The notes under the pieces are model-generated. The model did no database searches, was not told where the DNA came from, and saw only the letters and a list, made by a program, of their open reading frames with translations. From positions 32,001-96,000 of the forward strand of contig CAVTLK010000002.1 in NCBI GenBank assembly GCA_963735595.1: DNA of 64,000 nt. The letters run 5' to 3'. The number at the start of each line of letters is the position of its first letter. Position 1 is the stretch's first letter. Shown one piece after another: positions 37,639 through 42,937 of this stretch. The stretch comes from an uncultured delta proteobacterium. GTDB taxonomy: Bacteria > Desulfobacterota > Zymogenia > Zymogenales > Zymogenaceae. The position numbers were made by a program, and so were the translations under genes.

Positions 37639-39018
37639 ATGGCACAGAGATCCTCCGTATCCATCGTAAGAACTGAACTGCCCGCGGCCGATTCTGATAT
37701 CAAGCGGATAACAGAACAGGCCGTCGATCTCGTCGGGGGAATCGGGCGGTATGTCAAGCCGGGGCAATCGGTCGTCATCAAGCCCAACCTCTTTGCCCCC
37801 TACCCCCCGCCGGTCTCGGTGGACCGCCGGGTGATCGCCGCGGTCGTCTCGCTCTGCAGAGCCGCCGGTGCGGGCAAGGTCACGGTCGTGGAGGGGGTGA
37901 GCGTCGGCAGCCTCATGAAACGGGTCAATATCGAAAAGAGCGGCCCGTCGAAAGCGATGACCCGGGGGATGAAAACGATCGACGTCATGAAGCTGTTGGG
38001 TATAAAACGCGCGGTCGAGGAGGCCGGGGGCGAGGTCCTGGGTGTGGAAGACGGCCCGCGGGTCAAAACGGCCGTTGACGGCGGAAAGGTCCTGACCACG
38101 ATAGACTATCCGAGGTCGGTACTTGAGGCCGACGTCTTTATAAACCTGCCCGCACTCAAGACCCATACGATGACGATGGTGACGCTGGGCATCAAGAACC
38201 TCCAGGGCCTGTTGAACGAGGCGGACCGTTACTACGGCCACCGGGACGACCTGGATCAGCACATGGTTGACATCATGAAGGTCAGGAAGCCCGACCTGAC
38301 CGTCATCGACGGGCTCATCGGCATGGAGGGAATGGGAGCGGGAGAAGGGGGCGGGCCAGTGCCCCTTGGGGTACTGATTGCCGGCGCCGACCCCGTTGCG
38401 ACCGACGCGGTCGCTTCCATGGTGATGGGCATCGAAACCCCGACGGTCGTCGGTACGACGCGGATTGCCGCCTACGACGGGCTGGGTACGGGCTTGCCCG
38501 ACCAAATCGACGTCGTAGGTCTGCCGGTCTCTGAGGTCAGGAAGAAGTTCATGCTTCCCATCAATTATACGCAGCCGGTCGATACCTTTGTGACGGGGGT
38601 CTGGCCCAACGTGGATATCTTCATCGGGGGGGCCTGCCCCACCTGCTGGCTCATGGCGGCGCTTGTCCTCCCCTCGCTCAACAAGTTTCCCGAAAGGACG
38701 GTGCTGGTCGTCGGGGTAGACCCGAAGGTTCCCGCCGGAAGGACCTGGGACGAGAGAAACACCTTTTTCCTGGGCGACTGTGCCCTCGGCTGCGCCGGCG
38801 ACGCCCGGGAGATCAGGAACCGGATCGCGCTTTCGGGGAACGATACGTTTTTATCCGGGTGCCCTCCCTACGAACAGGCGCTCAAGAAGCTCGAAGATAT
38901 CATGGTCGACCGGGGTATTATCACCCGGGAATCGCTCGTGCATAAGGCACAGGAGCACCGTGATCGGTTCTTCACCTATTACCGGACCTATGACCCCACC
39001 TGGGAGCCGGAGCTATAG
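37639..39018 (+). CDS. DUF362 domain Fe-S protein with C-terminal Cys-motif domain
   Basis: VIKPN, INLPALKTH, TLGIKNL and DPVATD motifs; C-terminal GACPTC, GDC and GCPP. Confidence 0.85.
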   Translation: MAQRSSVSIVRTELPAADSDIKRITEQAVDLVGGIGRYVKPGQSVVIKPNLFAPYPPPVSVDRRVIAAVVSLCRAAGAGKVTVVEGVSVGSLMKRVNIEKSGPSKAMTRGMKTIDVMKLLGIKRAVEEAGGEVLGVEDGPRVKTAVDGGKVLTTIDYPRSVLEADVFINLPALKTHTMTMVTLGIKNLQGLLNEADRYYGHRDDLDQHMVDIMKVRKPDLTVIDGLIGMEGMGAGEGGGPVPLGVLIAGADPVATDAVASMVMGIETPTVVGTTRIAAYDGLGTGLPDQIDVVGLPVSEVRKKFMLPINYTQPVDTFVTGVWPNVDIFIGGACPTCWLMAALVLPSLNKFPERTVLVVGVDPKVPAGRTWDERNTFFLGDCALGCAGDAREIRNRIALSGNDTFLSGCPPYEQALKKLEDIMVDRGIITRESLVHKAQEHRDRFFTYYRTYDPTWEPEL

Positions 39019-40609: not shown

Positions 40610-40701
40610 GCGCGGCGGCGTGGAAAAAACGCCCGCACAGAAGTCTGCGCATACCCTCCGGCGGGGGGTCATTGTCGAGCCGCCGAAGTATAGGAAGAGA
40701 G

Positions 40702-41871
40702 ATGGGTAATTTTTCCGTGGTCAAGAGCATCGCCGAGATCAACGAAAAGATCAAGTCCGGCAAAGTCGTCGTTGTTACCGCCGAGGAAATGACGGCCCTC
40801 GTGAAGAAGGAAGGCGAGGTGGCCGCCGCCCGCAGGGTGGACGTGGTTACCACCGGTACCTTTGGGCCGATGTGTTCCTCGGGGGCCTTTCTCAACTTCG
40901 GGCACACGAAGCCCCGGATCAGGGCATCAAAGATCCTCATGAACCGCGTACCGGCCTACGGCGGAATAGCGGCGGTGGACCTCTACATCGGCGTCACCGA
41001 GCCGACCATCGACGATCCGCTCAACAAGGTTTTCCCCGGCCAGTTCCCCTACGGAGGGGGGCACGTGATCCAGGACCTCGTCTCGGGCAAGAAGGTCGAT
41101 CTCGATCTCGAGTCATATGGCACCGACTGCTACCCGAACAGGGGCCTGAAAAAGGGAATGCGCCTGAAGGACTTTCCCTACGCGATGCTCACCAACCCCC
41201 GTAACGCATACCAGAACTACAACGTGGCGGTCAACACCGGCGACCGGACCCTCTATACCTATATGGGTATCCTCGGGCCGAAATTTTCCAACGCCAACTA
41301 CTGCAGCGCGGGCGAGCTTTCCCCCCTCATGAACGACCCGCTGTTCAAGACGATCGGACTGGGAACGCGGATATTCCTGGGCGGGGGGGTCGGCTATGTC
41401 GTCTGGCACGGTACGCAGCACAACCCGAAGCCCAGCCGGGGCTTCAAGGGGGTGCCCACGGTGCCGGCGGGCACGCTCTCCGTCACGGGGGACCTCAAGG
41501 GGATGAACGGGAGGAATCTCGTCGGCGTCAGCTTCATCGGATACGGGTGCTCGATGGCGGTGGGTTTGGGGATACCGATCCCGATCCTCAACGAGGAGAT
41601 GGCCTACCATACCTCGATTGCGGACGACGAAATCCAGGCGCCGGTCGTGGATTACGCGGTCGATTATCCCCAGATGACCGGCCGGGTCCTCGGCTACACT
41701 ACGTACGGGGCGTTAAAGACCGGCGCGATCACGTTTGAGGGAAAAGAGATCCAGACCGTGCCGCTGTCTTCCCGCGTCCGCGCGCAGGAGATCGCGGCCG
41801 CCCTTAAGGGGTGGATCGAGAAAGGGTCATTTGCGCTGACGGAAGCGCAGGTGTTGCTGCCGTCGAAATAG
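40702..41871 (+). CDS. DUF39 homocysteine biosynthesis protein (aspartate semialdehyde sulfurtransferase-like)
   Basis: VDVVTTGTFGPMCSSGA, YGGGHVIQDL, NPRNAYQNY, YTYMG and GELSPL.NDP motifs. Confidence 0.9.
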   Translation: MGNFSVVKSIAEINEKIKSGKVVVVTAEEMTALVKKEGEVAAARRVDVVTTGTFGPMCSSGAFLNFGHTKPRIRASKILMNRVPAYGGIAAVDLYIGVTEPTIDDPLNKVFPGQFPYGGGHVIQDLVSGKKVDLDLESYGTDCYPNRGLKKGMRLKDFPYAMLTNPRNAYQNYNVAVNTGDRTLYTYMGILGPKFSNANYCSAGELSPLMNDPLFKTIGLGTRIFLGGGVGYVVWHGTQHNPKPSRGFKGVPTVPAGTLSVTGDLKGMNGRNLVGVSFIGYGCSMAVGLGIPIPILNEEMAYHTSIADDEIQAPVVDYAVDYPQMTGRVLGYTTYGALKTGAITFEGKEIQTVPLSSRVRAQEIAAALKGWIEKGSFALTEAQVLLPSK

Positions 41872-41989: not shown

Positions 41990-42937
41990 TCACGCCATCC
42001 GGATCGTCCCGTCTACCCTCCTGATCCTCCCCTCTCCCAACAGCTTCTGTACGTGGCTTTCGGTGATGCCGGTGCCGGGGAAAAACCTGATCATCTCGTT
42101 GGCAAACATCCGCCCGACCAGGTCGACAAACGAAATCGGCCCTTCGGAGAGGACGCCGAGCATCTTTTTCTCCCGCGAAAGGAGCCGCGCCCTTACCTCG
42201 TCGATCTTCGCGGCCGGATCATTGATAACGGCGCCGTGGGAGGGCAGGATGACGCGCGGGTTGCATGCTTCGATCTTCGCGAGGCTTTCGAGATAGCCCG
42301 TAACGCCGCCCGATGCCGGCGTGTACCACGCCACGATGTCCCCCACGAGGTCGCCGCCAAACAATATCCCGGTATCACGGTCAAAGAGCGAGACGTGTCC
42401 GGGGGAATGCCCGGGTGTGTGCAGCACCTCGAAACGGTATACCCCGAGGCGGACGATATCTCCTTCTTCCAGCGACCCGTCCGGGTCGGCCCGCGACATC
42501 GATCATCCTGACCCGTCGAAAAACGAGAAGAGGTCTTTCACCGGCCCCTCCGCGCGGCCTAAAAGCCGCGTGGCAAGCTCGATGTCAAAGGTCCCGGTAA
42601 GGCCGCCGGGATCGCGGGCGTGGTCAACGTCGTCTGTATGGATGAGGACCTCCGGCGAGCACTGCCCGAGGAGCATTTCCGCGGCACCCATGTGGTCGGG
42701 GTGGGCGTGGGAAAGAACAAGCGTCTTCAGGGACGAGAGATCAAGCCCCAGTTGCGCGAGCCCCGCCTTCAGCCGGTCGAGCGCGTCTGCCCTCCCGCAC
42801 CCCACGTCGATCAGCGAAAAGGAACCGTTGTCCACGACGGCGTAGACGCAGGCCGTAGCAGGCCACATTGGTGACGGGGGCGAGATTTGGAACAGGTCGT
42901 CGGCGACTTTTTCTACGATCAGGTCTTCAGATTTCAT
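41990..42937 (-). CDS. MBL-fold metallo-hydrolase with in-frame TGA (candidate selenoprotein)
   Basis: HAHPDH in ORF 42503..42937; HTPGHSPGH, GGDL and PSHG in same-frame ORF 41990..42499; joined by GGA-TGA-TCG-ATG. Confidence 0.85.
42468..42502 (-). promoter_or_regulatory. Putative bacterial SECIS element
   Basis: CGACCC-GGAC-GGGTCG hairpin, apical loop starting with G 20 nt after the TGA. Confidence 0.65.

Follow-up and report, generated by a model that had tools for sequence, protein, structure and literature searches.

The window analysed here, a stretch of 64,000 nucleotides from an uncultured delta proteobacterium (genome G000), carries on its minus strand an MBL-fold metallo-hydrolase gene that, in all likelihood, is intact and inserts selenocysteine (Sec) at an in-frame UGA, codon 145, where its relatives keep Cys; Sec insertion is what we infer from comparison with those relatives. 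In the mechanism that we propose, SelB would bind a hairpin 20 nt past UGA145 and deliver Sec-tRNA, and the product would be a 315-residue MBL-fold hydrolase with a binuclear metal site, which shares the TTHA1429/LACTB2/PqsE architecture and has all the ligands (H77, H79, D81, H82, H177, D196 and H234), in which the invariant Cys145 would have been replaced by Sec once, in one lineage of an anaerobic Desulfobacterota-type family. Delivery of Sec-tRNA by SelB bound to a hairpin is the established bacterial mechanism, and its use in an MBL-fold gene is the part that we propose. The features of the gene are as follows, with positions counted along the window.

41990–42937, minus: MBL-fold metallo-hydrolase gene, 315 residues when read through TGA145; a second TGA (41990–41992) ends it
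42848–42850, minus: residue 30, Cys in the window and Asn in the Cys-type family, shifting together with the TGA
42797–42799, minus: Cys47, three residues past the motif I Asp44, a possible partner of Sec145
42692–42709, minus: MBL motif II, HAHPDH (H77, H79, D81, H82); H77, H79 and H82 invariant and D81 nearly so in a 117-row alignment
42503–42505, minus: in-frame UGA, predicted Sec145; TGA in seven genes, Cys in 120 of 120 full-length homologues
42497–42499, minus: ATG of Met147, start of the 169-residue downstream ORF given by gene callers, preceded by an anti-Shine–Dalgarno match that includes the TGA
42473–42488, minus: bSECIS-like hairpin, 6 bp stem with a 5 bp invariant core and the 4 nt loop GGAC, 20 nt after the UGA, −9.5 kcal/mol
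42407–42409, minus: His177, motif III metal ligand, invariant in the 117-row alignment
42350–42352, minus: Asp196, motif IV, invariant; bridging role by analogy with LACTB2 Asp164
42236–42238, minus: His234, motif V metal ligand, invariant in the 117-row alignment
41993–42217, minus: C-terminal domain, residues 241–315, three helices and a beta-hairpin, which may be read as winged-helix-like and is common to TTHA1429 and LACTB2

The gene and its reading frame

Translation of the minus-strand frame from 42937 to 41990 gave a single internal stop, the TGA of codon 145, in the context FFDGSG-stop-SMSRADPD, which bears out an earlier sequence-only reading of two same-frame ORFs separated by one TGA (42503–42505). 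An ORF finder splits the gene here into ORFs of 144 and 169 residues, and the Pfam Lactamase_B match (residues 31–234) straddles the codon. That reading had also placed an HxHxDH motif upstream and H/D/H ligands downstream of the TGA, and these were located as HAHPDH at residues 77–82 and as H177, D196 and H234; together with D44, all of MBL motifs I–V, as defined in the available text of PMC4770246, are kept. Residue 145 lies in the context G-U-S-M, the equivalent in the Cys-type family being G-C-x-M, and there was no CxxU or UxxC motif. In terms of coverage, contigs from three of four sequencing runs span codon 145; among the runs listed, none contained more than 0.16 of the words searched and none was RNA. 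A promoter scan returned zero promoter-like sites; terminator-like sites numbered six against 2.2 expected, with none in the gap 3′ of the MBL-fold gene.

Codon 145 in relatives

The same TGA was found at codon 145 in seven distinct sequences, those of G000, G001, G002, G003 and G005 and of the loci L055 and L056, where G000–G003 belong to one genus and G005 to another genus of the same bacterial family. Counting the window's genome, TGA145 occurred in five of the nine orthologue-bearing genomes of the family, and close orthologues with TGC or TGT at this column were present in G004, G006, G007, G008, G013 and G053 (61 genomes searched). The seven TGA sequences share mostly 71–79% protein identity (71–94% across pairs) and contain no other stop, with the exception of the G003 copy, which is spread over three frames. 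Because the same TGA recurs in independent assemblies, a sequencing error is very unlikely.

At the protein level, Cys occupied column 145 in all 120 of the top full-length homologues (the best 120 of 972 matches, 43–61% identity), and Met followed two residues later (Met147) in every one of these Cys-type proteins. The sequence-only reading held that homologues with Trp at this position would speak against Sec; all 120 have Cys. In a sample of the phylum, 28 of 401 genomes matched at E 1e-40, and the 30 loci read comprised 5 with TGA, 17 with Cys and 8, the weakest, with a gap or some other residue; Cys (17) and TGA (5) share the 22 strongest genome loci between them. Metagenome loci gave TGA in 2 of 13 and Cys in the other 11. 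Cys145 fades with distance: with the query left out, 21 of 27 representatives scoring at least 200 bits have it, and below 200 bits a minority do. One Cys-type homologue (L085; G214:C49) has a single in-frame TAG at a different position. Among short database proteins, for which 120 of 917 matches were listed and the 34 best were examined, 21 of those 34 stop exactly at residue 144, the window's own included. Judging by these alignments, the Cys/TGA pattern singles out Cys145 as a residue that matters for function in a so far uncharacterised MBL subfamily.

The hairpin and selection on the gene

The perfect 6 bp stem with a GGAC loop that had been described as starting 20 nt past the TGA is present at 42473–42488. 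The bSECIS consensus comprises a 4–16 bp stem, a 3–9 nt loop with G at its start, a spacing of 16–37 nt and a stability of −7.5 kcal/mol or lower (Fig. 2 of PMC13188914, in the text available), and we applied it through a purpose-written filter; the hairpin fits with its 6 bp stem, GGAC loop, 20 nt and −9.5 kcal/mol, which taken alone is a weak test. Its stability was not above that of shuffled sequence (z 0.06 to 0.49, four windows) and was rejected as evidence for Sec, and a loose bSECIS-type filter also accepted the sequence 3′ of 565 out of 6119 ordinary Cys codons within genes of G000. The hairpin alone therefore proves little, and the weight that the sequence-only reading had given to it was too great. 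A stricter filter (GG loop at 17–22 nt) passed 47 of the 6119 Cys codons; its threshold was chosen with the data in view, and both SelD genes, the UXX-star gene and one Fdh gene fail it, so it carries little weight as well. The lower stem by which the hairpin was supposed to extend did not hold up, as the predicted lower pairings differ among the seven TGA genes and show no conservation.

What goes beyond chance is, on this comparative evidence, conservation: the TGA shared by seven sequences and the frozen 5 bp core. The core was identical in all seven TGA genes, silent sites included, while the outer C–G pair was broken in one (L055), and the sole variation within the core region was in the loop, from GGAC to GGGC in two of the seven. 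Compensatory stem changes were absent from the seven TGA genes because the core never varies. Third positions of codons 151–155 were invariant in all seven, the longest such run in the gene, and silent differences over codons 149–155 amounted to 11 in 131 pairwise comparisons versus 1781 in 4290 overall. With the place of the hairpin named beforehand, none of 2000 permutations was as low there; when any window in the gene was allowed, 17% of permutations were equally frozen (11% with five sequences). The hairpin codons also encode conserved residues, and outside the hairpin 19 of 107 codons with an invariant residue were also codon-invariant. In the eight Cys genes compared, the region varies freely and the core is not kept. 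As far as silent sites can tell, the hairpin is under selection in the TGA genes. Substitution rates likewise indicate that purifying selection acts on both halves of the gene, before and after TGA145: dN/dS was 0.13–0.20 in nine of ten half-gene comparisons with five TGA orthologues (one was saturated), and a dS of about 0.8–1.4 separates the window's gene from the four TGA relatives that are farther away.

Selenocysteine machinery and other selenoproteins of the genome

If the codon is Sec, the genome should hold the Sec machinery, and selA, selB, selC and selD are all present, G000 encoding tRNA-Sec (75.9 bits), SelA, SelB and two SelD. The lone tRNA with a UCA anticodon among 47 is tRNA-Sec. 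Both tRNA-Sec and SelA were found in the four other TGA genomes (SelA in pieces in G005), and across 15 relatives tested SelA was present in 14 and tRNA-Sec in 13, all four TGA carriers and most of the Cys carriers among them, so that loss of the machinery does not account for the Cys forms. The earlier proposal of Sec in a protein of about 315 residues is thus supported by the Cys column, by the Sec machinery and by the TGA and hairpin in relatives, which are shared by G001, G002, G003, G005, L055 and L056.

A TGA scan of the genome, made with a gene model and giving at least some of its other selenoproteins, found read-through candidates that match the known families Fdh-alpha, UshA-like and UXX-star; among eight candidates scanned, L106 had no match and L105 matched a hydrogenase cytochrome b. 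TGA followed by a GG-loop hairpin at 18–20 nt occurred in Fdh-alpha, two UshA-like genes and one glutaredoxin-like gene of G000. Each of the two SelD genes (C3:6076, plus strand, and C3:25541, minus strand) has a TGA in the usual N-terminal motif, and the frame of the second breaks 42 codons past it. Of the two UshA-like selenoprotein genes (C1:960094, plus strand; C5:549192, minus strand), the longer one has several CxxCH motifs in its terminal region. At C1:675605 (minus strand; L105:221–565) a TGA lies in a Ni/Fe-hydrogenase cytochrome b-like frame (TIGR02125, under cut-off), with coding signal on both sides and no clear SECIS-like hairpin; either an assembly error or an unusual Sec site could account for it.

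A separate observation concerns a bacterial alpha-2-macroglobulin gene (Pfam A2M, TED and bMG10; G000 C4:339137, plus strand; L102:4138–4140; loci L112–L115 and L111) with an in-frame TGA at the Cys of its thioester-type motif, which reads YPYG-stop-NEQ; a strong GG-loop hairpin comes next. G002, G003, G005 and G007 have the TGA with the hairpin as well, G001 having Cys and an altered hairpin, and the distance from the gene to selA is about 9 kb in G000, G001, G002, G003 and G005. By its sequence, the product may be a selenoester macroglobulin, possibly a more striking case than the MBL-fold selenoprotein. The 119-family table in the available text of PMC13188914 contains no macroglobulin selenoprotein, and a literature search gave unrelated papers only.

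Alternative readings of the UGA

A split gene, in which UGA145 is a true stop and translation re-starts at Met147 so that chains of 144 and 169 residues reassemble without residue 145, is an alternative that the sequence-only reading did not raise; it is very unlikely. Just ahead of Met147, base pairing between the 16S tail and the UGA with its flanks reaches −6.2 kcal/mol in the window and −8.4 to −10.8 kcal/mol in the other six TGA genes, against medians of −6.4 at called starts and −3.6 at internal ATGs, and pairing as strong precedes only 2–21% of internal ATGs. This ribosome-binding-like site makes a split gene with re-initiation possible: the match equals or exceeds the median called start (−6.4) in six of the seven TGA genes, whereas the eight Cys genes reach only −1.8 to −6.4 ahead of Met147. 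Such an arrangement would also explain purifying selection on both halves, and the break falls in a loop of the structure model. However, of the seven genes the window's own has the weakest match, and since the Cys genes also have Met147 without exception, this Met did not originate as a start. A split would throw away a position at which all 120 homologues have Cys and would leave unexplained a frozen GG-loop hairpin at SECIS distance, which would then sit on the start region; moreover, the stop is TGA in seven of seven genes and never TAA or TAG, with the halves in frame and the length unchanged. We give little credence to the UGA-made ribosome-binding-like site serving as a selenium-free, two-chain fallback when selenium is scarce.

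Reading of the UGA as Cys or Trp, by an alternative code or near-cognate read-through, is improbable in the extreme: insertion of Cys would restore the family sequence, the homologous residue being Cys, but the sole UCA-anticodon tRNA among 47 is tRNA-Sec, TGA terminates the MBL-fold gene at the family's C-terminus, and the known Sec sites of G000 use TGA. A pseudogene or a sequencing error at a Cys codon, suggested by the single base between TGA and TGC or TGT and by the three-frame G003 copy, according to which assemblies of this genus can carry errors, has next to no chance and is close to refuted by sequence comparison, given the same TGA in seven distinct sequences, four of which differ from the window's gene at dS of about 0.8–1.4, with dN/dS of 0.13–0.20 on both sides, and the 21 database proteins that stop at the same residue.

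Origin of the predicted Sec form

Insertion of Sec at codon 145 is the reading that we prefer, and its history was followed in two trees, a quick one (64 rows, with 5 outgroup rows) and a full one (27 rows), each with six TGA rows, G003 being left out. The TGA rows came together as one clade (100/99), which joins the Cys genes of the same bacterial family in a larger supported group; that group in turn is nested among other Cys genes. A single Cys-to-Sec gain would be the simplest reading of the trees, and the TGA genes, all being kin, count as one event. One other column of the N-terminal half shifts with the TGA: Asn30, present in 115 of 120 Cys-type homologues, is lost in all 21 N-halves ending at residue 144, which have Ala (9), Ser (9) or Cys (3). 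Shared ancestry alone could be enough to explain this loss.

Gene neighbourhood

In the window, the MBL-fold gene comes after a nuclease-like gene and a small one for which Pfam gave no match. An RND pump gene upstream and/or an alpha/beta hydrolase gene downstream was found at one TGA locus (L049) and five Cys loci (L015, L017, L018, L050 and L060), and at L065 beta-oxidation genes, for a thiolase and a 3-hydroxyacyl-CoA dehydrogenase, lie upstream. The neighbourhood differs among the TGA genes, the others having unrelated neighbours. Convergent with the MBL-fold gene, at 40672–41871 (plus strand), is a gene for a homocysteine-biosynthesis sulfur-incorporation enzyme (PF01837), a neighbour common only to the closest relative among the loci compared. 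The PF01837 family is typical of methanogens and some anaerobes. Elsewhere in the window, at 37639–39018 (plus strand), upstream of an FGGY kinase gene, lies a gene for a 459-residue DUF362 protein whose C-terminal extension is rich in Cys.

Fold and likely function

The motifs and the alpha-beta/beta-alpha fold place the protein in the MBL superfamily, binuclear hydrolase type, and PF00753 matched at 94.9 bits against a cut-off of 22.7. Among the best 25 of 32 NCBIfam matches, none was over its cut-off and none was a selenoprotein model. A subclass B3 metallo-beta-lactamase (NF033105) was rejected, with 52.6 bits against a cut-off of 240, Asp at motif IV and no N-terminal hydrophobic leader in the sequence, as were glyoxalase II (GloB; TIGR03413, 37.2 bits against 200.8) and the AHL lactonases AiiA/AttM/AidB (23–24 bits against curated cut-offs of 360–390).

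A structure model with Cys standing in at position 145 (pLDDT 96, pTM 0.93) showed the MBL core, a helical insert at about residues 101–142 and residue 145 opening the next loop. By analogy with MBL structures, the insert would form a lid over the pocket, and our best guess is that residue 145, which opens the loop behind these lid helices, sits on the edge of the substrate pocket, its position relative to the metals being a prediction. The residue three past the motif I Asp presumably lines the MBL active site; in this family it is Cys47, which is Cys in 109 of 120 Cys-type homologues and in all 21 N-halves ending at residue 144. The bridging Asp of LACTB2-type enzymes is LACTB2 Asp164 (PMC4770246, text available). 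In AiiA, E136 and M138 are near the acyl chain (PMC8173579), and as our alignments do not cover that stretch, AiiA serves as a model for residue 145 by analogy only.

Apart from the ligands, conservation is highest at aromatic or hydrophobic residues (W25, P26, W204, Y205, P207, F285, F286 and P287), and the conserved aromatic residues together with the neighbours point to a lipophilic acyl substrate. There is about an even chance that the protein is a cytoplasmic esterase, thioesterase or lactonase with a hydrophobic acyl compound as its substrate. That it is a LACTB2-like ribonuclease, or a sulfur or redox enzyme, in place of an acyl-ester hydrolase would be compatible with Sec, and we regard this as rather unlikely. 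The two-domain fold is that of LACTB2, and Arg255 (108 of 120) aligns with LACTB2 Arg220, which is needed for RNA binding (PMC4770246, text available); in the RNA-binding patch His216/Arg217/Arg220, however, Arg217 aligns with Leu252. Two conserved Cys/Sec positions, 47 and 145, hint at redox chemistry, whereas the conserved residues listed above suit a lipophilic pocket and the CstB/ETHE1 type of persulfide dioxygenase was absent from the top sequence and structure matches, which is not an exclusion. A link between LACTB2 His259 and His295 was dropped, as the residues are not aligned.

For residue 145 itself, given Sec, the odds are balanced as to whether it is a thiolate or selenolate touching substrate or metal. 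Tentatively, Sec145 could be a catalytic selenolate that binds metal or forms an acyl-selenoester intermediate, with the loss of Asn30 as matching remodelling of the site; a redox pair of Sec145 with Cys47 is more doubtful, and a structural role for Cys/Sec145 is unlikely.

Discussion

The closest fold was that of TTHA1429 (PDB 2zo4; Z 30.8, rmsd 2.7, 286 residues aligned), and with the Burkholderia MBL-domain proteins (5u8o, 5i0p and 6ao1) it matched over the whole length (Z 27.9–30.8, rmsd 2.7–2.9, 286–303 aligned); like the window protein, these consist of an MBL core and a C-terminal domain, at 21–24% identity, and TTHA1429 has no Cys at column 145, unlike the Cys-type family. For the Bacillus sp. 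S3wahi paraoxonase (PDB 8zxg; Z 27.1, rmsd 2.9, 284 aligned, 22–23% identity), a profile alignment puts a Cys at the residue-145 column, in a weakly aligned stretch, and the match may be due to chance; a literature search on this enzyme found no paper. Human endoribonuclease LACTB2 (Z 26.0, rmsd 3.3, 265 aligned) and the 2-aminobenzoylacetyl-CoA thioesterase PqsE (Z 24.2, rmsd 3.0, 260 aligned) are alike in fold and metal-ligand pattern, both at about 20% identity. LACTB2 is without most of the helical insert that bears residue 145, and its profile matches are split (26–93 and 155–311).

Known bSECIS-decoded selenoproteins resemble the present case in the UGA at a conserved Cys, the consensus hairpin, the full machinery and the TGA homologues elsewhere, but the MBL fold is not among the families in the available text of PMC13188914, and the window protein is without CxxU or UxxC. 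Table 1 of this 2026 review, as available, has 119 families and none with an MBL fold, in agreement with the sequence-only statement that MBL-fold hydrolases lie outside the known selenoprotein families, and neither 'lactamase' nor 'hydrolase' occurs in its available text; a term search found neither word in the available texts of PMC9312934, PMC12013277 and bioRxiv 10.1101/2022.07.06.499078. UshA-like selenoproteins (NF041198) are a listed family with a hydrolase fold, and two copies in G000 have TGA and GG-loop hairpins, so Sec in a hydrolase fold has precedent; they differ from the window protein in their unrelated 5′-nucleotidase-type fold and CxU motif. The selenoprotein families of Haft and Tolstoy 2025 appear in Table 1 of the 2026 review, and Deng et al. 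2026 (Cell Rep) reportedly drew novel candidates from 44,000 groundwater MAGs, which could include an MBL-fold family. Among the papers available, our literature search returned no report of an MBL-fold selenoprotein. The genes described here very probably represent a real, uncatalogued selenoprotein family, narrow in range.

Such a family would add a fold, and a type of metal-dependent hydrolase, to the bacterial selenoproteome, and it would call for correction of the annotation of at least 21 database proteins that are cut at residue 144, with the other half listed separately. If Sec145 is indeed catalytic, it would represent selenium in hydrolytic, non-redox chemistry within the MBL fold. 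Since the proposed Cys-to-Sec switch would be recent and Cys sisters in the same bacterial family hold the Sec machinery, the Cys and Sec forms are directly comparable, and their comparison could show what selenium does in a hydrolase.
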